Source: Myxococcales bacterium (lineage in GTDB: Bacteria > Myxococcota_A > Polyangia > Palsa-1104). From it: DNA of 64,000 nt. The stretch is taken from the NCBI GenBank assembly GCA_028287105.1, contig JAQBQH010000073.1, positions 1,963 through 65,962 on the forward strand. The letters run 5' to 3'. A program made the translations under genes and the position numbers. The notes beneath the pieces were generated by a model. That model was not told the origin of the DNA and did no database searches. It saw only the letters and a list, made by a program, of their open reading frames with translations. Shown one piece after another: positions 16,229-31,329 of the stretch (within the stretch, counting starts at the first letter, position 1; the number at the start of each line of letters is the position of its first letter).

Positions 16229-17257
16229 CTACCCCTTCCCCATGACCGACGTGATGGCGGCGACGATGTTCGGATAGGCAGCGCAGCGGCAGAGGTTCCC
16301 GCTCATCTGTTCGCGAACATCGGATTCGGAGCGGACGCGGCCTTCCTCGAGCATCGCCACCGCCGACATGATCTGCCCCGGCGTGCAGTAGCCGCACTGG
16401 AAGGCGTCGTGCGCGACAAAGGCCGCCTGCATCCGATGCAGGCCGTTGCCATTGGCGAGGCCTTCGATGGTCGTGATCGGCTGCGTCTGGTGCATGATCG
16501 CCAGCGTCAAGCACGAGTCGATGCGGCGACCGCCCACCAGCACGGTGCAGGCGCCGCACTGGCCGTGATCGCAGCCCTTCTTCGTTCCGGTGAGGCCGAG
16601 CTGCTCGCGCAGCGCATCGAGCAGGGTCACGCGCGGCTCGACGTCGAGCTTGTGGGTGACCCCGTTGACCTGCAACGTGATGCTCGTCGTGGCGCCGGTG
16701 GGCGCCGGCGGCGCGGGCGAGCGCGCCCACCCGAGCCGTTCCAAGAACACGACCGAGAGCACGCCCGCCAGCGAGGTCACGATCATCTCGCGACGGTTGA
16801 AGAGCGGCTGCGCGGCGCTCGACGCCTCCTGGCGCAGCGTCGCGGCCCGGCGCAGCGCGGCGAGCAGCTCTTCGGTGTCGTCGGTGCCGGCGGAGGTGGC
16901 GATCTGTTGCCAGACGACGGCTTCGTCGCCGTCGACGACGAACAGGCCGAGCGGGTGAGCGCCGTCTGCGCCAGGTTTTACGCCGAAGTGCGCGAAGAGC
17001 GCGTCCGTCCCGCCGTCGCCCACCAGCTCGAGCGTCTCGACGTCGTCGTCGGGCGCCAACAGGGCGATCGTCTCGCGCGTGATGACGATCAGCGCCGCGC
17101 CGAGGCTGCGCAGCTCGCCGCGAAACTGGTCGCGCCGCGCTTCGAGATCGAGCCGGGATGCGAAGGCGATGAGGGTCGGGCGCCCGCGTACGTCGTGCAG
17201 CGAGACGAGACGGCCACGAGCATCGCGGAGCGGGAACGAGCGCACGCTTGAGTCCAC
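16229..17257 (-). CDS. [2Fe-2S] small subunit (PaoA / CoxS-like) carrying an in-frame ~150-aa N-terminal thioredoxin-fold (AhpC/TSA-like, Cys-less) extension and an internal Tat-signal-like segment.
   Basis: C-terminal 160 aa has both 2Fe-2S motifs (GCDHGQCGACTV; CGYCTPGQIMSA). Residues 153-185 (FNRREMIVTSLAGVLSVVFLERLGWARSPAPPAP) parallel the E. coli PaoA (YagT) Tat signal. The upstream 150 aa have strong GC3 and no stop. No alternative start codon lies between residues 140 and 157. Confidence 0.7.
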   Translation of the reverse strand: MDSSVRSFPLRDARGRLVSLHDVRGRPTLIAFASRLDLEARRDQFRGELRSLGAALIVITRETIALLAPDDDVETLELVGDGGTDALFAHFGVKPGADGAHPLGLFVVDGDEAVVWQQIATSAGTDDTEELLAALRRAATLRQEASSAAQPLFNRREMIVTSLAGVLSVVFLERLGWARSPAPPAPTGATTSITLQVNGVTHKLDVEPRVTLLDALREQLGLTGTKKGCDHGQCGACTVLVGGRRIDSCLTLAIMHQTQPITTIEGLANGNGLHRMQAAFVAHDAFQCGYCTPGQIMSAVAMLEEGRVRSESDVREQMSGNLCRCAAYPNIVAAITSVMGKG

Positions 17258-17356: not shown

Positions 17357-17920
17357 ATGAAATCGCGAATCGCGTGCTTGGCGGTAGGGGTGGGGGCGTT
17401 GGCGCTGGCTGGTGCTGCGAGCGCGCAGCAGCAAGAGGAGCAGCCGCAGACACGGCAGCCGTCGAGCCAGCCGGGCAATCTGGCGCCGGCCGATCGACAG
17501 TTCCTCCAACAGGCGTACAGCATCAACCAGGGGGAGGTGAAGCTGGGCGAGGTCGCAAAGCGCAAGGGCACGACGGACGAGGTGAAGAACTACGGTCAGC
17601 TCATGATGTCCGATCACACCCTGGCGCTGAAGGAGCTCCACCAGTTTGCGGACAAGGCGAACGCCAAGGTCCCGAGCCAACTGCTCCCCGAGCAGCAGCG
17701 TGCGTATGAGCAGATGTCGAAGCTCTCCGGCGCGGAATTCGACAAGGCCTATATCGACCACATGGTCACCGGACACGAGGCCGCGATTGGCGCCTTCAGC
17801 AAGGAGGCGCAGTTCGGAAAGAATCCGGTGCTGAAGGATTACGCGCAGAAGACGCTTCCGATGTTGCAGTCGCACGAAGGCATCGCGAAGTTCGATCAGT
17901 CTCACCCGAACGAGCCGTGA
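17357..17920 (+). CDS. DUF4142-family periplasmic protein.
   Basis: RBS GAAGGAGG. Signal peptide MKSRIACLAVGVGALALAGAASA. Paired DUF4142 helical repeats (LGEVAKRKGTTDEVKNYGQLMMSDH...; DKAYIDHMVTGHEAAIGAF). Confidence 0.7.
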   Translation: MKSRIACLAVGVGALALAGAASAQQQEEQPQTRQPSSQPGNLAPADRQFLQQAYSINQGEVKLGEVAKRKGTTDEVKNYGQLMMSDHTLALKELHQFADKANAKVPSQLLPEQQRAYEQMSKLSGAEFDKAYIDHMVTGHEAAIGAFSKEAQFGKNPVLKDYAQKTLPMLQSHEGIAKFDQSHPNEP

Positions 17921-18438
17921 GCCGCTCGGCTCCGACGCACGCGATGGCGGAGCAGCCGTTCGCGCCAGACAAAGAGCAGGATGCAGAGCGGCGGCAACGC
18001 CAGCGGCGGCCACTGCGCCAAGAACGGCGGCGGTGCCGACCCGACCGGCAGCTCACACGAGACCGTCGCGCTATCGCTTTGGTGTCGTACCGCGATGGTG
18101 AGCTGCCATGTGCCGGGGGCGGGCAGCTCGAGGAGCGCGGCCTGCAGGAGGCGGTTGCTTGCGGCGGCGTGGGACGGCGCCAGCATGCGCGTCGTTCCAT
18201 CGGGCGCGCGAACGCGCAGCTCTACCGTCGCGTCGAGCAGCACCGCGGCGGCGGCGCCACGCTCCAGCACCAGCACGCTCACTTCGGCGCTGCCGACGCG
18301 TAGCGGCTCGGGCGCGGTGAACAGGGCGATCACGAACGGGCCGGCCGCCCGCGTCAGGCGCAGCGTTCCGCCGTCGGCGAACGCGGGTGCTTCCGACTGC
18401 AAGAGAAGAGCGGCGAGCAGGATCGCCCGCCACCTCAC
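17902..18438 (-). CDS. Small periplasmic protein with C-terminal membrane anchor; possibly FixH / YtkA-like. Follows the CtaG-CcoG gene with a GTGA overlap.
   Basis: GTG start overlapping the upstream TGA stop. Signal peptide VRWRAILLAALLLQSEAPAFA. Beta-rich periplasmic domain (GTWQLTIAVRHQ), then a hydrophobic C-terminal helix and basic tail. The family assignment is a guess from genomic context. Confidence 0.45.
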   Translation of the reverse strand: MRWRAILLAALLLQSEAPAFADGGTLRLTRAAGPFVIALFTAPEPLRVGSAEVSVLVLERGAAAAVLLDATVELRVRAPDGTTRMLAPSHAAASNRLLQAALLELPAPGTWQLTIAVRHQSDSATVSCELPVGSAPPPFLAQWPPLALPPLCILLFVWRERLLRHRVRRSRAAHGSFG

Positions 18439-20645
18439 GTCGACATCCCGCGCATCTGCATCGGCGAAAGAAGGGTCCACACCCCCACGACCCACAGCGC
18501 GGCGGCGAAGGCTGCGAAGGGTAGATATCGCGGCGGTGTGCGCGCGATCTTCCAGCCGACGTACAGAGAGGCCAAGAGCCCGCCGTCGAGCAACAGCAGC
18601 TCGACGCTGACGAGTCGATCGGGTGCCACGCCCGCGCAGGCGAGCGACCACTGGGGATCGCCGAAGCGGAGCAGCCGTTGGACGACCGGCCATAGTGAGC
18701 GCCAACCCGTGGCCAGGTGAAACGCGAGATGCGCGGCCCACATGCCCATCCCGAGCGGTACCAGCGCCAGCGCGAGCCGGCAGAAGAGCGCGCGGCCGAG
18801 CGCCTTCCGGCCCGCCGCCAACAGCGCCGACGCGATCAGGAGGCCGACGAGGACGAGGCGCGCGGGCTGGGTCGAGCGGACCATGATCGCCGCGGTGCCG
18901 AAGGCGGCGATCACGACGACCAGTGCCAGGAGCGCCACGTCGAGCCGCTGCGACAAGCGGCCGAGGGAGGCGACGCCGTGGTCACGCATGAGGAGGCGGC
19001 CGGGCGCGACGGCTACGAGGCCGATGTTGTCGTGCGGACACGCCTTGACGCAGTCGAGACAGAAGGTGCAGTCGAGGTTGCCCACCTTGCGCGGCAGATA
19101 GAGGTCGAGCTCGCAGCCGCGCTGCCCTGCGTTGCCGCGCAGGCAGTCCTTGGTGTCACAGTCGGCGCAAACGACCGGCAGGCGCACCTTGACCTCGAGC
19201 GGCGAGAGGAGCGAGCCCACGAACTGGAGCTGGCCTACCGGGCAGACGTATTTGCAGAAGCTGGCGCCGCGCACCAACGAGTCGATCGCGAACGCGGCCA
19301 GGAAGTACGCGATCACCAGCATGGCGGTGGCGCGCGGCGAGTCCCACCAGCCGAACCATTCCTGGGCGACGAAGAAGGCGGCCAGGAGCCCGACGGCGAG
19401 CCATTTTCCGCGCAGCGCCCGCGGCCAGGTCCTCGTCGCCTGGCCGAAGCGCCGGCCGAGCTCGCGCGGCAGCGTGAACGGACACGCCATGCAGAAGAAG
19501 TTGCCGGTGGTGAGGAGCGCGACCACGGTGAGCGCGCGCCACCAGATCCACGGCACGATACCCGCCAGGTTCATCGGCGCTGCCCGTGGCCCATGCAGCC
19601 CGTCGACGATCACCAGGATCGCAACGGCCAGGCTCGCGGTCTGCAGCAGGCGACGGCCGTGGCGCGCGCGCAAGAGCCAACCCACCATCGGTGCGCGCAG
19701 AAGGTCGAATTGCTTGGGCGGCATGATCGCAGTCGAAGCCGCGCTCGGGCGCGCTCGGGCGGCCGCGGGCGGTGAGAGCCAGCGAACGCACAGCACGATC
19801 GCCGGCGCGAGAAACACGAGCGAGCCGGGGACCCACATGATCACGCCGGCGGCGATCTGGTCGTCGAGCGCCGCCATGTCGAACAGCCGCGGCACCGTCA
19901 GATACGACGCGTACAGGACGCGATCGGAGAACACGAGCAGCGCCGCGAGCGCGCTGTTCTGCAGGTCCGCCAGCAAGAGGCACGGTAGGATCGCCCAGCG
20001 CGGCTTGCGCGCGCTCATCACGGGCCACCAAAACAGCAGCGCTGCGCCGAAGAAGCTGGCGTGCTCGAGCCGATGCCACGCCGGCGAGCGCAGCGCCAAC
20101 TCGTAGCTCCGCGGCACGTGCCAGGCCCAGGTCGACGCCGAGAGCACGACCAACCCGACGAACGGACGCCGAAGCGCGCGCGCGATCCGGGCGAGCGCCG
20201 GCGACGCGAGAAACGGCCCCAGCAGCTCGCGCGCCAGCGACGGCGGCAGCCCACGCAATGACGCCCGCGCCGGCGCGCCGAGCAACAGTAGCGGCGGCGC
20301 GATGGCGAGCAACAGCAGATGCTGCACCATGTGCGCGCTGAGCAGAAACCGCGCGAGCGCGTCGATGGGAGAAGCCACCGCCAGCGTGAGCGCGCCGAGA
20401 CCAGCGACGAACGCGTAGAGCCGCCACGCCGGCCAACGGAGCCGACGCCAGCCGCGTGTGTAGACGATGGCCGCCGCGACCAGACCACCGGCGAGGCCCG
20501 GCGGAAACGACCAGGACGAAAGCAGCGCGCGCGCGACGCCCGACACGCGCGTCCTAGCGGCCCGGCGAAGCCGCGTTCCGGCCGGGCGAAGCCGCGCTCG
20601 GCGGGAGCGCTGCCTCGGCAGGATTGCGCGCAGGCGAGAGCCCAT
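18435..20645 (-). CDS. Fusion membrane protein: caa3-type cytochrome oxidase assembly factor CtaG / CopD-like N-terminal domain + polyferredoxin CcoG/FixG/NapH-like C-terminal domain.
   Basis: N-terminal ~300 aa carry HMVQHLLLLAIAPPLLLLG (Caa3_CtaG/CopD signature) and multiple TM helices. C-terminal ~430 aa carry CMACPF, CKYVCPVGQ and CTFCLDCVKACP (4Fe-4S ferredoxin motifs within membrane helices, as in CcoG/NapH). The true start is probably an internal GTG/ATG, because the first ~30 codons overlap the cytochrome b gene. Confidence 0.75.
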   Translation of the reverse strand: MGSRLRAILPRQRSRRARLRPAGTRLRRAARTRVSGVARALLSSWSFPPGLAGGLVAAAIVYTRGWRRLRWPAWRLYAFVAGLGALTLAVASPIDALARFLLSAHMVQHLLLLAIAPPLLLLGAPARASLRGLPPSLARELLGPFLASPALARIARALRRPFVGLVVLSASTWAWHVPRSYELALRSPAWHRLEHASFFGAALLFWWPVMSARKPRWAILPCLLLADLQNSALAALLVFSDRVLYASYLTVPRLFDMAALDDQIAAGVIMWVPGSLVFLAPAIVLCVRWLSPPAAARARPSAASTAIMPPKQFDLLRAPMVGWLLRARHGRRLLQTASLAVAILVIVDGLHGPRAAPMNLAGIVPWIWWRALTVVALLTTGNFFCMACPFTLPRELGRRFGQATRTWPRALRGKWLAVGLLAAFFVAQEWFGWWDSPRATAMLVIAYFLAAFAIDSLVRGASFCKYVCPVGQLQFVGSLLSPLEVKVRLPVVCADCDTKDCLRGNAGQRGCELDLYLPRKVGNLDCTFCLDCVKACPHDNIGLVAVAPGRLLMRDHGVASLGRLSQRLDVALLALVVVIAAFGTAAIMVRSTQPARLVLVGLLIASALLAAGRKALGRALFCRLALALVPLGMGMWAAHLAFHLATGWRSLWPVVQRLLRFGDPQWSLACAGVAPDRLVSVELLLLDGGLLASLYVGWKIARTPPRYLPFAAFAAALWVVGVWTLLSPMQMRGMST

Positions 20646-22071
20646 CTCCTCGCAGCGTCTCGAGGAACGACACCAGCGCCGTCACCTCGGGCGGGCTCAA
20701 GTTCTTTCCGTAGGCAGGCATGTTGCCGCCGCCCTGCAGCACCTGGCGGATCAGCTCGTCCACTGTGAGCCGCGACGCCACCTCGTCGAGCGCCGGGCCG
20801 CGCCGCCCCCCCATGCTGTCGAGCGCGTGGCAGTTGCGGCACTGCTTGTTTTGCAGCACCAGCGCGCCCTGTCGCTCGAGCGGCGAGCGCCCCTCGAGGT
20901 AGCGCGCCGGCACCGGGGCGCCGCTCCATGCGTTGGCGACCGGCGACCACGGCGTCGTCTGGCCCAGCCGGGTGAGCGCCGCGAACGAGACGCCGACCAG
21001 GAGCACGGTCAAGACGGCGAGCGGCCGCCGCCGCCAGCTCTTCTCGCCGAAGCCGGAGAGGAGCGGCAAGACGAAGAGGACCCCAATCCCGATCACCGGC
21101 GCCGTCAGGAGCAGCGGCGTCTCCAGGTTGCGCGGCAGCAAGGAGAGCGCGGCGTAGAGCCAGAGGAAGAAGAAGTCGGGCCGCGGCGTCGTTTGGATGA
21201 TCGTCGGATTGGGCGGCCCCGACGGGCCGAACGGTCCGAACAGCGCCGCGCAGCCCAGCACCGCCAGCACCGCCAAACCCGCGGCGACCAGATCGCGCTG
21301 GAAGGCATCGGGCACGAACGGGATGCCGTCCTTCTGCACCAGCTCTTCGTAGTCGTGCAGGTAGCGGTCGCGCGTGACCAGCCGCCCCGGCATGGGCCAC
21401 TCGTTGATGCCGAGCGTGAGCACCATGAGCACGTGCAGCCCGGCGAGCGCGAGCAGCAGACCCGGCACGATGAACACGTGCAGCGAGAAGAAATGCGACA
21501 GCGTGTCGCCGGCGATGATCGGTCCGCCGAGGAGCAGGTGCACCAGGCGCGCCCCGACGAGTGGCACGCGGCCCATGATCGAAGCGCCGATGCCGAGTCC
21601 CCAGTAGGCGTCCTGGTCGAAGCGCAGTACCTGCCCGGTGAACGCCATCCCGAGCGTGAGCAGGAGTAGCAGGACGCCGGTCATCCAGGTCAGCTCGCGC
21701 GGATACTTGAACGCGCCGAAGAGGAAGACCTGCACCATGTGAATGAGGACCAGCGCGACCATGAACGTCGAGCCCCAGCCATGCACCGCGCGCAGGAACC
21801 AGCCGCCGGGCTCGTCGTGGTTGAGCGTCTGCAAGCTGTTCCACGCCTCCGCCGCCGACGGGACGTACGAGAAGGCGAGCACGACGCCGGTGACGATCTG
21901 CAAGAGGAACAGCACGAAGGTGACGCTGCCGAACACGTAGAACCAGCTCGCCGTCGAGCGCGGTACGCGGTGGCGGGCCACCTCACGGATGGTGTCGGCG
22001 AGCTGCAGACGGCGATCGAGCCAGGCACCGAGGGCGCGAATCAGGCGCACGACGACCCCGCAGGGGGACAT
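20554..22071 (-). CDS. Cytochrome b subunit of a bc-type complex (b6 + subunit-IV-like) with a fused C-terminal mono-heme cytochrome c domain.
   Basis: Eight-plus TM helices with conserved His pairs (FMVALVLIHMVQVF; HFFSLHVFIVPG). PEWY-like region. C-terminal CRNCH heme-binding site plus a downstream Met ligand (GGNMPAYG). Confidence 0.8.
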   Translation of the reverse strand: MSPCGVVVRLIRALGAWLDRRLQLADTIREVARHRVPRSTASWFYVFGSVTFVLFLLQIVTGVVLAFSYVPSAAEAWNSLQTLNHDEPGGWFLRAVHGWGSTFMVALVLIHMVQVFLFGAFKYPRELTWMTGVLLLLLTLGMAFTGQVLRFDQDAYWGLGIGASIMGRVPLVGARLVHLLLGGPIIAGDTLSHFFSLHVFIVPGLLLALAGLHVLMVLTLGINEWPMPGRLVTRDRYLHDYEELVQKDGIPFVPDAFQRDLVAAGLAVLAVLGCAALFGPFGPSGPPNPTIIQTTPRPDFFFLWLYAALSLLPRNLETPLLLTAPVIGIGVLFVLPLLSGFGEKSWRRRPLAVLTVLLVGVSFAALTRLGQTTPWSPVANAWSGAPVPARYLEGRSPLERQGALVLQNKQCRNCHALDSMGGRRGPALDEVASRLTVDELIRQVLQGGGNMPAYGKNLSPPEVTALVSFLETLRGDGLSPARNPAEAALPPSAASPGRNAASPGR

Positions 22072-22670
22072 TCGCGACGCGCGGACTCCGACAGCGTCGG
22101 CAACCGGCCGGCGAGGATGACGAGCGCGCCGCGTTCAATCTTGTGGCGGTACTGCCACAGGCCGCGCGGCGGCGGACCGCCTGCGAGCGAGCCGTCCTCG
22201 TAGTAGACCCCACCATGGCAGGGGCACAAGAACAGGGCCGACTGGGCGAACCAGCGCACCGGACAGCCGAGGTGCGCGCAGTTGATCGCGAACACCTGGA
22301 ACTGATTGCCGCGGATGTGCCGCACCCAGCAGGGGATGTCGGCGGTCTCGCCGTCCCATGGGTGCCGGAACGGGTTGGTGAACGTCGCCAACCTCGTCTG
22401 TCCCTCGGGGAACTGCTCGAGCGGCCCGAGCGTGACCCACGCCTGGTCGGAGCGCATCGCTTGCTTGCGCGCGGGCGCGAGGAGGTAGCGCACCACCGGC
22501 GTGAGAAGAAGCGCCGCCGCCGCGCCGTTGATGAGAAGGCCCAGCCGGAGCAGCATGCCACGACGAGATGGGGGCCTTTCGTTCTCAGGTGAACGATCCA
22601 TGGCTCTTCTCCTCAGCGGCTGCGGGCATGGGGCCTCCCCGGAAATTCCTGGCGGTGCGAGATCAGCCAC
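22041..22670 (-). CDS. Rieske [2Fe-2S] iron-sulfur protein.
   Basis: CAHLGCPV ... CPCHGGVY boxes. N-terminal RR-containing TM/Tat-like anchor (SRRGMLLRLGLLINGAAAALLL). Confidence 0.8.
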   Translation of the reverse strand: MADLAPPGISGEAPCPQPLRRRAMDRSPENERPPSRRGMLLRLGLLINGAAAALLLTPVVRYLLAPARKQAMRSDQAWVTLGPLEQFPEGQTRLATFTNPFRHPWDGETADIPCWVRHIRGNQFQVFAINCAHLGCPVRWFAQSALFLCPCHGGVYYEDGSLAGGPPPRGLWQYRHKIERGALVILAGRLPTLSESARRECPPAGSSCA

Positions 22671-23338
22671 GCCACCACGTCGGCGATCTGTTGCGACGCG
22701 AGCGGACGGCCCGGCACGTCGCTGCGCCAGTCGGGTTGGCCGATCTCTGGCCGGCCGACGATCACCAGTGTGCGCAACGATTGAGCGCTCACGAGCGCGA
22801 GATAGGAGCCGTCGACGATGGAGCGCGACTTCGGCCCATCGCTGCCGTCGGAGCCGTGGCAGCTCGCGCAGAAGGTTGCGAACACGCCGGCGCCGCGTCG
22901 CGCCTCGCCGTCCGGACCGACGTAGGGCGGCGGCGTCTCCGAGAGCGTCTCGGCCCGCGCCCAGTGCGTGCGAATCCCGCGGGCGATGACGTCGACCTGA
23001 CGGTCGGTCAGCCCGCCGCCGGCGCTCTGGGCGAACGCCGGCATGCTGGTCCCTGCCACGCCGGTGGCGATGATCCGACGCAGGGTCTGGTCGTCGGCGA
23101 TCGCGAGATACACGACGTTGTCGAGGCCGAGCGCCGCGCCGCCGCGACCGTTCTCGCCGTGGCAGCCGGCGCAGCTCGACGCATAGAGCGCCGCGAAGTC
23201 CTCGACCTTCGACGGCTGTCCCTCGAGACTGACGCCCTTCGGCTGCCCCGGCAGCGTGCAGCCGCCGCCGCCCACAATAACGACGACGACGACGAAGGCG
23301 AGAGCCCCGACGACGACGATGGCCCGGGCGCGCGTCAT
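22613..23338 (-). CDS. Membrane-anchored diheme cytochrome c (QcrC / cytochrome cc-like).
   Basis: Real start is MTRARAIVVVGALAFVVVVVIVGGGGC (TM anchor). Two CxxCH sites (CAGCHG, CASCHG). The ATG overlaps the upstream stop as ATGA. The longer 522-aa ORF is read-through. Confidence 0.8.
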   Translation of the reverse strand: MTRARAIVVVGALAFVVVVVIVGGGGCTLPGQPKGVSLEGQPSKVEDFAALYASSCAGCHGENGRGGAALGLDNVVYLAIADDQTLRRIIATGVAGTSMPAFAQSAGGGLTDRQVDVIARGIRTHWARAETLSETPPPYVGPDGEARRGAGVFATFCASCHGSDGSDGPKSRSIVDGSYLALVSAQSLRTLVIVGRPEIGQPDWRSDVPGRPLASQQIADVVAWLISHRQEFPGRPHARSR

Positions 23339-24165
23339 GGCCGCCGGCCTGTTTCGAGGCCGATGCGCTCGGCGAACGGCTCGCTCTGGCGCGTGTGGAT
23401 GCGCAGGCTGCGCGACACCACCACGCCGGCCGCGAGGCCGAAGCCGATCTGCGAGACGAGGAACCAGCCCCAGTCGATTCGCCGGGCCAACACCGGATTG
23501 ATCATCCCGATGGTCGGATACAAGAGCGCCGACCACGCCAGCGGCGCCACCAGCCCACCGGCCAGCACTGGGCGGCGCGAGAACATCGGCAGCAGCATGC
23601 CGTAGAGCGTGCCGACGAGCAGCGACGTCACGCCGTGGATGAGCGTACCGAACAAGAGCGCCCAGCCGTCGAAGGCGCTCAGCTCCTCGGTGGTGGCCCT
23701 GAGCTCGGGCCTGTAAAACCCCGCGACCAGAATGTTGATCGGATACCAGACGCCATGGTGCGAGATGACGCCGTAGATGGCGGCGGTGAGCGCCATGACC
23801 ACGCCGCCGGCGATTCCGCCCTTGATGCCCGCGGAGACGGGAAAGATCTCGACCGGCAGCCGTGCGCGGTGCTCTCGCTCCGCGATGCGTGGGTGCGTCG
23901 TCGGAGGACGCGGCTCGATGCGCGGCTGCCCCTCGGGCTCGATCGGAATCCGGACGCTGCGCTCGACGGGCAGCACCACGCGGAACCAGCCGACTGCGCC
24001 GGCAACGAGCAGTACCGCGCCGAGCAGGCTCACCTCGCCCGCGGTCACCAGCCCGGCGCCCAGGAGCGTGGCGCCGAAGGCCATGGTGAGCGGCCAGGCC
24101 GTCGGCGCCGGCACCTCGATCTCTTCGGGGCCGCCCGTCGCTTCCGTGCGCTCCGTCGCCTCCAT
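23335..24165 (-). CDS. Hypothetical polytopic membrane protein (276 aa, ~6 TM) embedded in the oxidase/bc operon.
   Basis: Real start is MEATERTEATGG... The remainder of the 463-aa ORF is spurious. Hydrophobic helices (GATLLGAGLVTAGEVSLLGAVLLVAGAVGWF, GGIAGGVVMALTAAIYGVI, WALLFGTLIHGVTSLLVGTLYGMLLPMF and others). Start and stop are coupled to their neighbours by ATGA overlaps. No family recognised. Confidence 0.55.
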   Translation of the reverse strand: MEATERTEATGGPEEIEVPAPTAWPLTMAFGATLLGAGLVTAGEVSLLGAVLLVAGAVGWFRVVLPVERSVRIPIEPEGQPRIEPRPPTTHPRIAEREHRARLPVEIFPVSAGIKGGIAGGVVMALTAAIYGVISHHGVWYPINILVAGFYRPELRATTEELSAFDGWALLFGTLIHGVTSLLVGTLYGMLLPMFSRRPVLAGGLVAPLAWSALLYPTIGMINPVLARRIDWGWFLVSQIGFGLAAGVVVSRSLRIHTRQSEPFAERIGLETGRRP

Positions 24166-24170
24166 CGCCG

Positions 24171-24761
24171 TCACCGTCCAATCACGTAGACGACGCTGAA
24201 CACGACGATCCAGACGCAGTCGACGAAGTGCCAGTAGAGCGCGAGCACCTCGACGTGCTCGGTGTAGCGACGGTGCAGCTTGCCGAAGAGCGTGAGCATC
24301 AACACCGTCGTCAGAAGGACGAGCCCGACGGTCACGTGGAACGCGTGCAGCCCGACGAGCGAGTAGTAGGTCGTGCCGAACAGGTTGGTCGCCGGCGTGA
24401 GCCGCTCGTGGTGGACGAGCCGGGCCCACTCGCGGCCGGTGCCGGCGAGGAAGAGGGCACCCAGCGCCGCCGTGGCGCCCCACGCGACCGCGAACGTAGC
24501 CAGGCGTCCCCGGCGCAGCGCCCGCACGGCCCACGCGATGGTCCCGCTCGACGACAGGAGGCAGATGGTGTTCGCCACCGGCAGCGAGAGCGCCTGCTCG
24601 GGCGTCGGCCCGTAGGGGCTCTTTCCCAGATAGAACAGATACGCGACGACGAAGATGACGAACATCGCGCTCTCGGCGACGATGAAGCACACCATTCCGA
24701 CGCGATTGCGCGAGGGGAGCTCCCACCCGGCCTCGCCGGCGACGACGGCGGCTTGGTTCAT
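24171..24761 (-). CDS. ctaE: Cytochrome c oxidase subunit III.
   Basis: 196 aa from MNQAAVVAGEAGWELPSRNRVGMVCFIVAESAMFVIFVVAYLFYLG. Conserved subunit-III helices (ALYWHFVDCVWIVVFSVVYVIG). The ATG overlaps the ctaD stop (ATGA). The rest of the 729-aa ORF is a shadow. Confidence 0.8.
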   Translation of the reverse strand: MNQAAVVAGEAGWELPSRNRVGMVCFIVAESAMFVIFVVAYLFYLGKSPYGPTPEQALSLPVANTICLLSSSGTIAWAVRALRRGRLATFAVAWGATAALGALFLAGTGREWARLVHHERLTPATNLFGTTYYSLVGLHAFHVTVGLVLLTTVLMLTLFGKLHRRYTEHVEVLALYWHFVDCVWIVVFSVVYVIGR

Positions 24762-26455
24762 TCGTACACCCAGTCGGGATCTTCGGGATGCTTCAGATCC
24801 CACAACGGGCGCCGGCTGCGCACCGTCGGCACGACCGCGAAGTTGTATTCCGGCGGCGGCGACGACGTCGACCACTCGAGCGTCCACGCGTCCCACGGAT
24901 CGGGGCCCGCGAGCTTGCCCTTGTGCAGGCTGCGCACGAGGTTGACGAGGAAGCATGCGACGCCCGCGGCCTGGAAGAAGGCGCCGATGGTGATGACGAG
25001 GTTGAGGGTCTCCCAGCCCCGTCCCGGCTCGTAGGTGTAGATGCGGCGGGGCATGCCGAGCAGCCCCGGGATGTGCATCACGGTGAAGGTGAGATGGAAC
25101 CCGACCAGGAACAGCCAGAAATGCAGCTTGCCCAACTTCTCGTCGAGCATCCGACCCGTCACCTTGGGGAACCAGTAGTAGAAGGCGGCGAAGACGGTAA
25201 AGAGCAGCGACCCCACGAGCATGAAGTGGAAGTGCGCGACCACGAATGTGGAGTCGGTGAGCTGCCAGTTGAAGGGCACGGCCGCGAGCATGATCCCCGT
25301 CAGCCCGGCGATCAGGAACTGGCCGATGAACGCGATGCAAAACAGCATCGGTGTGGCCAGGCGGATCTTGCCGCCCCACATCGTGCCGATCCAGTTGAAG
25401 ATCTTGATCCCCGTCGGGATGCCGACCAGCAGCGTCGCGACCATGAAGAAGGTGTTCGCCGTCATCGACATCCCGACGGCAAACATGTGGTGCGCCCACA
25501 CGCTGAGGGAGACGAAGCCGATGGCGATCACCGCGCCGACGAGGACCGGGTAGCCGAAGATCGCCTTGCGCGAGAAGACCGGGATGATCTCGGAGGCGAA
25601 CGCCCAGCCGGGAATCATGAGGATGTAGACCTCGGGGTGGCCGAAGATCCAGAAGAAGTGCTGCCACAAGACGGCCGAGCCGCCGGCCTGGGTATCGAAG
25701 AAGTGGGCGCCGAGGAAACGATCGGCGAGCAGCATCAGCTGCGCCGCCGCCAGCGGCGGGACCCCAACCAGCACCAGCACCGAGTCGACGACGTAGAACC
25801 AACACAGAAGGGGCAGTTTGCCGAGCGTCATCCCAGGGCAGCGACGGCTGAGGACGGTGGTGATGATGTTGACGGCGGTCCCGATGGAGCCGACGCCGGA
25901 GAGGAAGATGGAGAGGATCCAGTAGTCCGTCGAGTGCCCGCGCGAAAACGCGCGCGAGGTCAGGGGCGCGTAGGCGAACCAGCCCACGTCGGGCGCACTG
26001 CCGGCGCCGTAGAGCCCCTCGGCGCCGAGAAAGCTGAAGTAGAGGAGGAGCCCGGCGAATGCGCTCATCCAGAAGCTGAACGCGTTGAGCCGGGGGAAGG
26101 CCATGTCGCGCGCACCGATCATGAGCGGCACGAGGTAGTTGGCGAAGCCGAAGATCAGCGGCATCCCGACGAAGAACACCATCGTCGTGCCGTGCAGCGT
26201 GAACAGTCGATTGAACGTCTGCGGCGCGAGCAGCGTATTGTGCGGCGCCACGAGCTGAAGCCGGATCAAGAGCGCCTCGCTGCCGCCGATGAGGAGGAAC
26301 AGGAGCGCGTAGAGCACGTACATCACGCCGAGGCGCTTGTGGTCGACGGTAACGATCCATTCGTGAAGCCGCTGCCAGAAGCGCGCCTCGACCTCGCGCG
26401 TCGTGACCGCGGCTTCGCCCGTCATGGCCGTCGTTCGTGGCGCTGGAACGCCCAT
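24758..26455 (-). CDS. ctaD: Cytochrome c oxidase subunit I (heme-copper oxidase catalytic subunit).
   Basis: 565 aa, 12+ TM helices. Ligand-bearing motifs (WFFGHPEVYILMIPGWA; HHMFAVGMS). Confidence 0.9.
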   Translation of the reverse strand: MGVPAPRTTAMTGEAAVTTREVEARFWQRLHEWIVTVDHKRLGVMYVLYALLFLLIGGSEALLIRLQLVAPHNTLLAPQTFNRLFTLHGTTMVFFVGMPLIFGFANYLVPLMIGARDMAFPRLNAFSFWMSAFAGLLLYFSFLGAEGLYGAGSAPDVGWFAYAPLTSRAFSRGHSTDYWILSIFLSGVGSIGTAVNIITTVLSRRCPGMTLGKLPLLCWFYVVDSVLVLVGVPPLAAAQLMLLADRFLGAHFFDTQAGGSAVLWQHFFWIFGHPEVYILMIPGWAFASEIIPVFSRKAIFGYPVLVGAVIAIGFVSLSVWAHHMFAVGMSMTANTFFMVATLLVGIPTGIKIFNWIGTMWGGKIRLATPMLFCIAFIGQFLIAGLTGIMLAAVPFNWQLTDSTFVVAHFHFMLVGSLLFTVFAAFYYWFPKVTGRMLDEKLGKLHFWLFLVGFHLTFTVMHIPGLLGMPRRIYTYEPGRGWETLNLVITIGAFFQAAGVACFLVNLVRSLHKGKLAGPDPWDAWTLEWSTSSPPPEYNFAVVPTVRSRRPLWDLKHPEDPDWVYE

Positions 26456-26474: not shown

Positions 26475-27443
26475 TCAATGAAGCGTCAGGAGAAACTGGA
26501 CGAGTTGATCGATCTGTTGCTCGGTCAGCTTCATTGCCGGCATGTGCGCGCCCGGCTTGATGCCGTTGGGATCGCGAATCCAGGCACGCAACGTCTCCGG
26601 CGACAGCGGGGCGGCGCCCGCGGCGAGCGTCGCGCGGCTCATGAGGTGCGTGAGGTCCGGCCCGTATCGTCCGTTTCCGACGGTCCCTGCAACCGAGTGG
26701 CAGTTGATGCAGGCGTTGCTTTCGAACACGCGCCTGCCGGCTACCACCGCGTCCAGCTCGGACGGGACCTGCGGGTCGCCCTGCCTCTGCGCCTGCGCCC
26801 ATCGCTCGAACTCGTCGCGCGGGTGCACGTAGACGCGCAAGAGCATCTTGGCGTGCTGGGTGCCGCAGTACTCGGCGCACTGGCCCACGTAGACTCCCGG
26901 CGCGGTCGGCGCGATCCACATGTGATTGACGCGATTGGGAATGAGATCCGTCTTACCGGCGAGGCGCGGCACCCAGAAGCTGTGCGCGACGTCTGCCGAG
27001 AGCAGCGTGAGCCAGGTCGGCGTCGGCGCCAGTGGGTCCGAGACCGGCACGTGGAGCTCGTTGGCGGTCACGATTCCCAGCCCCGGATAGCGGAGCTCCC
27101 ACCACCACTGATGGCCGATCACGATGACGTCGATCGCGTTCGCCGGCCGCGTCACTCCCTGAATCGATTGAATGACTCGCGCCGTGGTGAGCGCGAGCAC
27201 CAGGACGATGAGGACGGGCACCACCGTCCACGCGGTTTCGAGCTGATTCGAGCCGTACACTTGCGGCGGCTCCCGTCCATCATCCGTGTCGCGGCGACGG
27301 AAGCGCACCACCGCAACGATGGTGAGGCCGAAGACGACGAAGAAGATGGCTCCGGTCACCGCGAGGACGAACAGCGATAGCTCGCTCGTCCGGCTCGCCG
27401 GTGCGGAGACTGCGGCGAATATATTGGCTGGCGCGTCCCCCAT
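26475..27443 (-). CDS. ctaC: Cytochrome c oxidase subunit II with fused C-terminal cytochrome c domain (caa3-type).
   Basis: Two N-terminal TM helices. CuA site VYVGQCAEYCGTQHAKM. C-terminal CINCHS (CxxCH) c-type heme domain. Confidence 0.85.
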   Translation of the reverse strand: MGDAPANIFAAVSAPASRTSELSLFVLAVTGAIFFVVFGLTIVAVVRFRRRDTDDGREPPQVYGSNQLETAWTVVPVLIVLVLALTTARVIQSIQGVTRPANAIDVIVIGHQWWWELRYPGLGIVTANELHVPVSDPLAPTPTWLTLLSADVAHSFWVPRLAGKTDLIPNRVNHMWIAPTAPGVYVGQCAEYCGTQHAKMLLRVYVHPRDEFERWAQAQRQGDPQVPSELDAVVAGRRVFESNACINCHSVAGTVGNGRYGPDLTHLMSRATLAAGAAPLSPETLRAWIRDPNGIKPGAHMPAMKLTEQQIDQLVQFLLTLH

Positions 27444-30843: not shown

Positions 30844-31329
30844 TCACTGTGGCGACGGGGTCGCTGTCGGCGCTCCGGACGATCCTTGCGGAGACATGCG
30901 CCCTCGCCTCGTCGCGGGGCGCAGCACCAGCTTGGCAAATTGAGCAGGCGTCAGCTCCTGCTGGAGCTCGGCGAGCTCCTGCGCGTCGACGGCTTCGACC
31001 TGTTGTCGACCGCTCGTCAGCTGGTTGGCCAACTGCGTGAGGCGAGCAGGATCCGGCTGCGCGGCGGCGAGCTCTTGTTGCAGCGCCTGCGCCGTCTGCT
31101 GCTCCGCTTGCCGAACGGGCTCGAGCTGGGCCCGATACTTCGCGAGCGTCTGCGCGACGGCTGACGCCGTCGTCGCGTCGAGGCCCAGGTGATTCGCGAT
31201 CGCGGTGGCCGCGTCGTTCGCAGAGCTCGCCTGGGTCGCCGTCGCCGGGTTGGTCGCTTCCGACGGTGAGGGCTGCGCCAACGCCGTGCTTCCTACCAAT
31301 AACGCCATCAAGGGCAGTGCAGTTTTCAT
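30844..31329 (-). CDS. Periplasmic Spy / CpxP-family (LTxxQ motif) chaperone-like protein.
   Basis: Strong RBS GGAGGTAA. Signal peptide MKTALPLMALLVGSTALA. Q/A-rich helices with LTPAQFAKL (LTxxQ). Confidence 0.65.
   Translation of the reverse strand: MKTALPLMALLVGSTALAQPSPSEATNPATATQASSANDAATAIANHLGLDATTASAVAQTLAKYRAQLEPVRQAEQQTAQALQQELAAAQPDPARLTQLANQLTSGRQQVEAVDAQELAELQQELTPAQFAKLVLRPATRRGRMSPQGSSGAPTATPSPQ

Follow-up and report, generated by a model that had tools for sequence, protein, structure and literature searches.

The fusion gene and its operon

The window analysed here is a stretch of 64,000 nucleotides from a Myxococcales bacterium assembly (contig JAQBQH010000073.1), and on its minus strand a compact series of nine genes runs from 27443 to 17902 (Table 1). 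The eighth gene encodes, in one polypeptide, an N-terminal CtaG domain and a C-terminal membrane polyferredoxin, and the ninth a small YtkA-like protein; these two are the sole assembly-type genes within the unit. CoxB carries both a CuA motif, CAEYCGTQHAKM, and the haem c motif CINCH, so that the oxidase encoded at the head of the series is of the caa3 type, in agreement with the aa3-type oxidase operon recognized in the initial annotation of this DNA. No ccoN, ccoH, ccoI or ccoS gene is present in the operon context, which holds coxBAC with Rieske and cytochrome b genes instead. The nine-gene order is kept in 56-61 of 80 related loci, across four or more phyla, with the fusion gene in the penultimate position. 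The flanks of the unit in the window are unrelated to it, with a phosphoesterase gene upstream of coxB and a convergent DUF4142 gene downstream, and the operon of Acidobacteriaceae strain KBS 96 likewise has unrelated flanks. Several of the gene junctions in the operon overlap by 4 nt (ATGA or GTGA), which suggests translational coupling along it.

Table 1. Position of the operon genes, of the modules and motifs of the fusion protein, and of the standalone gene pairs (window positions, except where another locus is named).
Feature	Position	Strand	Details and evidence
coxB	26475-27443	-	CuA and haem c
coxA	24758-26455	-	
coxC	24171-24761	-	
Six-transmembrane protein	23335-24165	-	~276 aa; no Pfam or NCBIfam match
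Dihaem cytochrome c	22613-23338	-	
Rieske protein	22041-~22601	-	
Cytochrome b with C-terminal monohaem cytochrome c domain	20554-22071	-	Both cytochrome b N- and C-terminal parts present
CtaG and membrane polyferredoxin fusion gene	18435-20546	-	703 codons and TGA stop; start, alignment, reading frame and third-position GC
Caa3_CtaG domain, residues 1-257	19776-20546	-	Seven predicted transmembrane helices; Pfam, invariant residues, AlphaFold (AF2) model, topology
H72, M73, Q75, H76	20319-20333	-	Invariant; motif HMVQH
W142, H143	20118-20123	-	Invariant
H158, E161, H162	20061-20075	-	Invariant
D229, Q230	19857-19862	-	Invariant
Arg-rich linker, residues 258-287	19686-19775	-	Predicted cytoplasmic; alignment, AF2 model, topology
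Four-transmembrane polyferredoxin core, residues 288-435	19242-19685	-	NapH/MauN match, NapH/YccM alignment, invariance
C352-x2-C355-P	19479-19493	-	
C431-x3-C435-P	19239-19256	-	
Ferredoxin-like domain, residues 436-534	18945-19241	-	Predicted cytoplasmic; eight invariant Cys; alignment, models, NapH/YccM comparison
C460-x2-C463-x4-C468-x9-C478	19113-19169	-	
C493-x2-C496-x2-C499-x3-C503-P	19035-19070	-	Canonical
C-terminal five-transmembrane bundle, residues 535-703	18438-18944	-	Alignment, model, topology
M555	18882-18884	-	Predicted periplasmic loop
H606-x3-H610	18717-18731	-	Predicted helix 14
P695-M696-x-M698-R699-G700	18447-18464	-	Predicted periplasmic tail
YtkA-like gene	17902-18438	-	178 codons; signal peptide, YtkA-like beta-sandwich, C-terminal anchor
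Standalone pair, locus L081	4967-7248		
Standalone pair, locus L085	5446-7395		
Standalone pair, locus L089	602-3099		
Standalone pair, locus L084	5594-7407		
Standalone pair, locus L087	5264-7368		

The open reading frame (ORF) found mechanically extends from 18435 to an upstream limit at ATG 20645, and this was the extent given to the gene in the initial annotation; the frame stands and the start has moved. We rejected ATG 20645 since it would overlap the upstream gene by 92 nt and since the N-termini of homologues are equivalent to position 20546, so that the likely start is GTG 20546, 7 nt past the stop of the cytochrome b/c gene. A 703-residue database protein is 100% identical to the product (NCBI MDB4965783.1, '4Fe-4S ferredoxin, iron-sulfur binding domain protein [Myxococcales bacterium]'). 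The GC content at third codon positions in the ORF frame is 0.80-0.98 over the whole gene, with no break in periodicity at the junction where the initial annotation had called for a check against a frameshift. In all 79 loci with a complete gene, taken from at least 578 matching genome stretches, the fusion is an uninterrupted single ORF of 666-794 residues with all four cysteine motifs, and an alignment of 47 fusion homologues, which are also the sample for the family-model scans below, is continuous through a variable linker. On this evidence from independent loci, a frameshift or assembly error that joins two genes is scarcely credible and was rejected; the fusion is a real single gene, as first described, and a widespread one.

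The prevalence of the fusion in databases, which had been left to be checked, proved to be considerable. Among 5.8 billion protein clusters more than 4148 relatives were found; the top 120 of these are near full-length and 49-100% identical. The stretches counted above, from a collection with one genome per species, belong to Verrucomicrobiota, Acidobacteriota, Planctomycetota, Binatia and others, with the cultured Acidobacteriaceae strain KBS 96 (Acidobacteriota) and Gemmata (Planctomycetota) among the carriers. JGI labels many of the relatives 'cytochrome c oxidase assembly factor CtaG/polyferredoxin'. These sequences are thus abundant and already annotated by machine, and we found no published description of the architecture: our literature search, which had the family survey in the CcoG paper of Marckmann et al. 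(2019) outside its scope, returned no paper describing a CtaG-polyferredoxin fusion. A systematic phylogeny of CtaG took only proteins with 6-9 transmembrane (TM) helices (PMC8239418), and fusions of about 16 TM helices would therefore fall outside it; in a review of oxidase assembly factors the only fusion mentioned is CtiP, which joins CopD to CtaG (PMC9145763).

Modules of the fusion protein

The N-terminal module is a true member of the Caa3_CtaG family, as had been proposed. Pfam Caa3_CtaG (PF09678) matches residues 28-257 over profile positions 2-235 of 237 (E=9e-55; 186.1 bits against a cut-off of 27.7), and the same family is matched by all 47 homologues. The expected HMxQH-type motif is present as HMVQH, and M237 and W238 are invariant in the 47 fusions in addition to the residues listed in Table 1. 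All of the invariant residues that Table 1 gives for this domain, the putative ligands H72, H76, H143, H158, H162 and D229 among them, are predicted at the periplasmic ends of helices; this would agree with published work on multi-TM Caa3_CtaG proteins, in which the conserved His and invariant Asp, as putative Cu ligands, are placed at the outer membrane face (PMC8239418, PMC9145763). The Bacillus subtilis Caa3_CtaG is of this Pfam family too; it has seven TM helices with outer-side conserved His and an invariant Asp, and its gene, like the one here, is found at the end of a cluster for a caa3 oxidase. Unlike it, the window protein misses the cut-off of the CtaG equivalog model, NCBIfam TIGR02737 (53.7 bits against 279.35), and carries roughly 445 further residues. 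The first of these form the Arg-rich linker, whose sequence and length differ from one homologue to the next; in those shown, insertions reach roughly 45 residues.

The linker is followed by a four-TM core with two membrane-proximal Cx(2-3)CP motifs and then by a di-cluster ferredoxin-like domain, the arrangement by which the NapH/YccM/CcoG superfamily (COG0348-type) is recognized. The eight invariant cysteines of the ferredoxin-like domain would be enough for two predicted [4Fe-4S] clusters. The motifs listed in the initial annotation (CMACP, CKYVCP and CTFCLDCVKACP) are all present, and we found an additional one of the form CxxCx4Cx9C. Twelve cysteines are invariant in the 47 fusions and have the arrangement expected for a CcoG-like protein, with one cluster motif of non-canonical spacing; all of the motif cysteines line up with those of Escherichia coli NapH and YccM, the first cluster motif having an insertion relative to CxxCxxCxxxCP. 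The protein ends in a five-TM bundle that is absent from CcoG, NapH and YccM and has no match in Pfam or NCBIfam. Its invariant residues are M555, the H606/H610 pair in an i/i+4 arrangement, four residues ahead of which M602 is nearly invariant, and those of the Met-rich tail.

The initial annotation had called this part of the protein CcoG-type, and the domain search that it suggested gave a confident Caa3_CtaG domain together with sub-threshold polyferredoxin matches (Pfam Fer4_5 in 38 of the 47 fusions and Fer4_18 in 27). No curated Pfam or NCBIfam cut-off is passed by the polyferredoxin module; Fer4_5 is above threshold in a standalone relative (E=1.8e-10). The most consistent matches are to the NCBIfam models NapH/MauN (47/47, best E 3e-12) and NapH (47/47, best E 1.4e-10), followed by NosR (30/47), and CcoG/RdxA/FixG (TIGR02745) is matched weakly by 25 of the 47 (best E 1.2e-5) and by the window protein not at all at E<=1. 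The NapH/MauN match spans residues 343-508, and the cut-offs of TIGR02163 and NF007013 are missed by a wide interval (32.5 bits versus 213, and 19.7 versus 234). The immunoglobulin (Ig)-like domain FixG_C gave no Pfam match at E<=1 in any of the 47 members, and the C-terminus of the model is the set of five predicted TM helices. In 72,556 plasmids searched by tblastn there were 32 matching records, none of them with a FixG/CcoG gene. A profile search of PDB sequences gave no match, and Foldseek against the PDB gave no significant match for the full-length model.

Comparison with CcoG, which rests on the NCBIfam and Pfam models and on the sequences of E. coli YccM and NapH, gives a mixed picture. 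Like CcoG/FixG/RdxA, the cupric reductase associated with the cbb3 oxidase of Rhodobacter capsulatus, the module is a membrane polyferredoxin with eight cysteines that could serve two [4Fe-4S] clusters and with two membrane-near cysteine motifs, is encoded with a haem-copper oxidase, and has an Ig-like or FixH-like periplasmic element associated with it. Unlike CcoG, it scores below the TIGR02745 threshold, is fused to CtaG, has additional helices with an HxxxH pair and a PMxMR tail, and accompanies a caa3 rather than a cbb3 oxidase, with no ccoHIS genes nearby. Because it is without the periplasmic Ig-like domain and adds a five-helix bundle, the module is not a CcoG orthologue, so that the earlier label holds for the superfamily and fails for the family. 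NapH/MauN and E. coli YccM are the best profile matches and share the alignable four-TM core, the two Cx(2-3)CP motifs and the C-terminal di-cluster domain; they differ from the fusion in the spacing of the first cluster motif (Cx2Cx4Cx9C in the fusion), in having no extra TM bundle, and in their Nap or Mau partners, which are absent here. By sequence comparison, the module is a distinct subfamily of the NapH/MauN/NosR/YccM/CcoG superfamily.

Topology was predicted from the helices of an AlphaFold model combined with Lys and Arg counts over the alignment. The prediction alternates consistently, with the N-terminus outside, and places the linker, both Cx(2-3)CP motifs and the iron-sulfur (Fe-S) domain in the cytoplasm and the Met-rich tail in the periplasm. 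Per-residue confidence (pLDDT) is mostly 84-96 in the CtaG part and is low only in the linker and the cluster-binding loops; the latter is to be expected, since the model was built without cofactors.

The YtkA-like partner and the standalone polyferredoxins

The GTG start of the downstream gene overlaps the TGA stop of the fusion gene (GTGA), which suggests that the two are translationally coupled. A YtkA-like gene, detected with a family profile, lies directly downstream of the fusion in 58 of the 79 loci, and in 27 of these 58 it is offset by -4 from the end of the fusion ORF, so that its start overlaps the stop codon there. The initial annotation had described a small anchored secreted protein reminiscent of FixH and YtkA, and the first part of this description is borne out by a cleavable-looking signal peptide and a C-terminal TM helix. 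As to the likeness, Pfam YtkA (PF13115) is matched by 26 of 36 family members at E<=1 (best 8.9e-9), two members having a precomputed domain, and Pfam FixH (PF05751) by 9 of the 36 (best E 0.0038); the window copy falls below the YtkA cut-off (16 bits versus 25.9). The YtkA/FixH-like class of beta-sandwich appears a fair description, with the anchor at the C-terminus, unlike FixH. The model of the protein is a beta-sandwich with a pLDDT of 89.7, for which the nearest solved folds are Helicobacter CrdA, a copper resistance protein (TM-score 0.73-0.80, target-normalised), DUF4426, and the copper-containing FetP/P19/FtrA proteins. Judged from its sequence, the downstream protein appears to be a beta-sandwich of the YtkA/CtaK type that is secreted and C-terminally anchored. 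Copper supply to the oxidase of B. subtilis involves YtkA/CtaK as well as the YtkA domain of YcnJ (PMC13344008).

The polyferredoxin module also occurs on its own. The best match in the plasmid search was a standalone 452-residue '4Fe-4S binding protein' of Deinococcus ficus (E=2e-28), which aligns to residues 270-669 of the fusion with the extra C-terminal helices included. It belongs to a family of proteins of ~450 residues with 1550 matches, found in Deinococcus, Symbiobacteriaceae, Clostridium, Paenibacillus, Chloroflexota and Desulfobulbus, and a HMMER scan with the C-terminal 418 residues of the fusion gave 1744 representative clusters at E<=1e-3, comprising fusions of ~700-850 residues and standalone forms of ~420-500. 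When the C-termini of 47 fusions are aligned together with 38 standalone proteins, all 12 cysteines are invariant, as are H606, H610, M555 and a tail of the form P-M-x-(M/H)-R.

In every context examined (n=5; Table 1) a small secreted gene precedes the standalone polyferredoxin gene. Clostridium coskatii and a soil contig have a YtkA-domain protein as the partner, D. ficus has a secreted, His-rich protein with a hydrophobic anchor at its C-terminus, and Paenibacillus and Symbiobacteriaceae each have an unannotated small protein; one standalone locus has a weak P19-family neighbour. Copper genes lie close by in two of the five contexts, namely a multicopper oxidase in Paenibacillus and a P-type ATPase with an HMA protein in Symbiobacteriaceae. 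Standalone polyferredoxin and small secreted gene together look like an uncharacterised two-gene module. We also considered whether the gene beside the Deinococcus polyferredoxin could be a split CtaG and rejected this, as it encodes the His-rich secreted protein. That partner (D. ficus pDFI1, locus L081, 4967-5893) has a long His/Asp/Pro-rich insertion with many H-x-x-H-like repeats before its C-terminal anchor, which suggests a high-capacity metal-binding region.

Proposed role in copper supply to the caa3 oxidase, and alternatives

The architecture of the fusion, its conservation, its operon context and its pairing with the YtkA-like gene are established. We propose, with about even confidence, that the fusion is a copper-handling assembly factor for the caa3 oxidase encoded upstream, that it has a built-in reductase, and that it works with the YtkA-like protein. 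This would be an inner-membrane assembly factor of three modules and roughly 16 helices, acting together with a translationally coupled periplasmic partner. The Caa3_CtaG module would handle copper through its conserved His, Asp and Glu ligands at the periplasmic face. In the polyferredoxin, two cytoplasmic [4Fe-4S] clusters would serve the two cytoplasm-facing CxxCP and CxxxCP motifs, whose most likely role, by analogy with CcoG, is to bind copper and to reduce Cu(II) to Cu(I). The five-helix bundle, in which the HxxxH pair lies within the membrane and the Met ligands on the periplasmic side, could serve to bind copper or to carry it through the membrane. In this model we infer the binding of Fe-S clusters and of copper, the reduction of Cu(II), the source of the electrons, the direction in which copper moves and the CuA or CuB target.

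Published work on related proteins is consistent with these assignments. Two [4Fe-4S] clusters and two Cu sites are described for CcoG, a cupric reductase; YccM is a CcoG homologue, and YccM-type homologues are without the Ig domain of CcoG (PMC7558416). Caa3_CtaG is required for caa3 activity, specifically so in B. subtilis (PMC9145763). The H606/H610 pair, with M602 and the periplasmic Met ligands, resembles the transport motifs MxxxM and HxxxM given for CcoA (PMC6362234). The arrangement suggests that copper reduction and copper delivery to the oxidase could be physically coupled, and the 'fused Cu(II)-reduction and Cu(I)-insertion machine' of the initial annotation stands as a reasonable hypothesis.

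Several observations weigh against our proposal. The full-length AlphaFold model is of moderate confidence only (mean pLDDT 77.6, predicted TM-score 0.56), and in it the Fe-S domain and cysteine motifs are predicted to be cytoplasmic and the CtaG ligands periplasmic. Coupling of a cytoplasmic reductase chemistry to periplasmic CtaG ligands would therefore need copper to cross the membrane, possibly through the CopD-related CtaG domain or the C-terminal bundle, and with the two on opposite faces a simple direct hand-off is not evident. The polyferredoxin appears closer in sequence to NapH/MauN, of the quinol dehydrogenase type, than to CcoG. Its standalone homologues occur in strict anaerobes lacking oxidases, so that the module itself is not specific to oxidase assembly. 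In Verrucomicrobia of the Terrimicrobiaceae/Spartobacteria (loci L004, L006-L008, L015, L017, L023, L026 and L037) the full-length fusion lies apart from cox and bc genes, with no YtkA-like ORF detected downstream, and the genes beside it at L017 have housekeeping roles (Usp, purF-like, AIR synthase-related). Finally, conserved classical Cu ligands are scarce in the downstream protein, which makes copper binding by it uncertain.

The profile ranking, with NapH/MauN and NosR ahead of CcoG, and the presence of the standalone family in anaerobes would also fit an electron-transfer module of the NapH type that draws on quinol or on a cytoplasmic donor, serves an acceptor other than Cu(II), and has CtaG only as its anchor at the site of assembly. 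Such a module might keep CuA-site or chaperone thiols reduced, or maintain the oxidase as NosR does N2O reductase. We consider this unlikely: the operon has no NapG- or NapC-type partners, and periplasmic thiols would not be directly reachable, because the clusters are predicted to be cytoplasmic and the single HxxxH pair is the only evident site for a transmembrane redox cofactor.

We regard with the same degree of doubt a role in copper uptake and homeostasis, in which the CopD-related CtaG domain would import copper, the polyferredoxin, acting in the cytoplasm, would reduce it and so serve chaperones and efflux pumps, and the location in the operon would reflect co-regulation with the main copper consumer. 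Loss of CcoG also alters copper tolerance (PMC7558416), and CtaG has been proposed to support YcnJ-dependent import (PMC13344008); the Terrimicrobiaceae fusions outside cox operons point the same way, as do the standalone modules with copper genes (a multicopper oxidase, or a P-type ATPase and an HMA protein) close by. Set against this are the tight synteny with coxBAC and the bc complex in most lineages, the conserved boundaries of the operon, and the specific need for Caa3_CtaG in caa3 activity in B. subtilis noted above.

A bolder reading, which at present seems improbable, makes the protein a copper redox shuttle that is complete in itself and has no need of the usual route through a chaperone and a P-type ATPase. 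Cu(II) would be captured at periplasmic CtaG and YtkA sites, moved to the cytoplasmic face and reduced at the CxxCP and CxxxCP motifs by the two [4Fe-4S] clusters, and Cu(I) would return through the HxxxH helix to a periplasmic Met/His site (M555 and the PMxMR tail) and into the caa3 oxidase. If this were so, the standalone gene pairs of a YtkA-like protein and an eight-TM polyferredoxin, which occur in many phyla, anaerobic Firmicutes among them, would represent a general class of membrane metal reductases or translocases that has so far gone unrecognised. More doubtful still is a structural or redox subunit of a bc-caa3 supercomplex, as might be supposed of the usual eighth gene of a structural operon that also encodes another conserved uncharacterised membrane protein. 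The CtaG family is known for assembly factors, the Fe-S domain is predicted to face the cytoplasm, away from the c-type cytochromes, and in some lineages the gene lies apart from the operon.

There is precedent for parts of the proposed assembly factor in other systems. In Corynebacterium glutamicum CtiP (CopD-CtaG) and in B. subtilis YcnJ (CopC-CopD-YtkA) with CtaK/YtkA, CtaG- or CopD-type domains are joined to or paired with further copper-handling modules, a YtkA-like domain among them; unlike the fusion, these have no iron-sulfur reductase module, and the YtkA protein here is separate and C-terminally anchored. The YcnJ/CtaG route has no known reductase, and Firmicutes such as B. subtilis lack a CcoG homologue (PMC13344008). 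The FtrABCD iron uptake system, the FtrD component of which we compared by description, likewise combines a periplasmic metal-binding beta-sandwich (FtrA/P19) with a membrane polyferredoxin, and the fold of our small protein and the P19-family neighbour of one standalone locus recall it; there is no Ftr1 permease or cupredoxin partner here. Archaeoglobus fulgidus CopZ is a copper-trafficking protein fused to a Cu(II)-reducing Fe-S domain (PMC7558416), but it is soluble and cytosolic and its folds are unrelated.

How aa3 and caa3 oxidases are supplied with reduced copper and what Caa3_CtaG actually does are unsettled, and the fusion bears on both. A CtaG-polyferredoxin fusion in several phyla, with a YtkA-like partner, is a 'Rosetta stone' link that would predict a local, dedicated redox step for the A-type oxidases, and it points to a separate, uncharacterised polyferredoxin subfamily with candidate metal ligands conserved on both sides of the membrane. 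The fusion is a testable lead on copper reduction for A-type oxidases, and Acidobacteriaceae KBS 96 and Gemmata are cultured carriers in which the hypothesis could be examined.

Three further features of the window deserve mention. A small minus-strand ORF at 30844-31329, about 3.4 kb upstream of the oxidase operon, has a sub-threshold match to Pfam Metal_resist (E=6e-4). A cluster for a molybdoenzyme of the xanthine dehydrogenase family, with XdhC- and MobA-like genes, occupies 11.3-17.3 kb and includes a [2Fe-2S] small subunit (16229-17257, minus strand) whose translation has an apparent N-terminal extension of roughly 170 residues. Within the operon, the six-TM protein keeps its position between coxC and the dihaem cytochrome c gene in 58 of the 80 loci; it is perhaps a subunit of the bc-caa3 unit, or an assembly factor for it, that has gone unrecognised.

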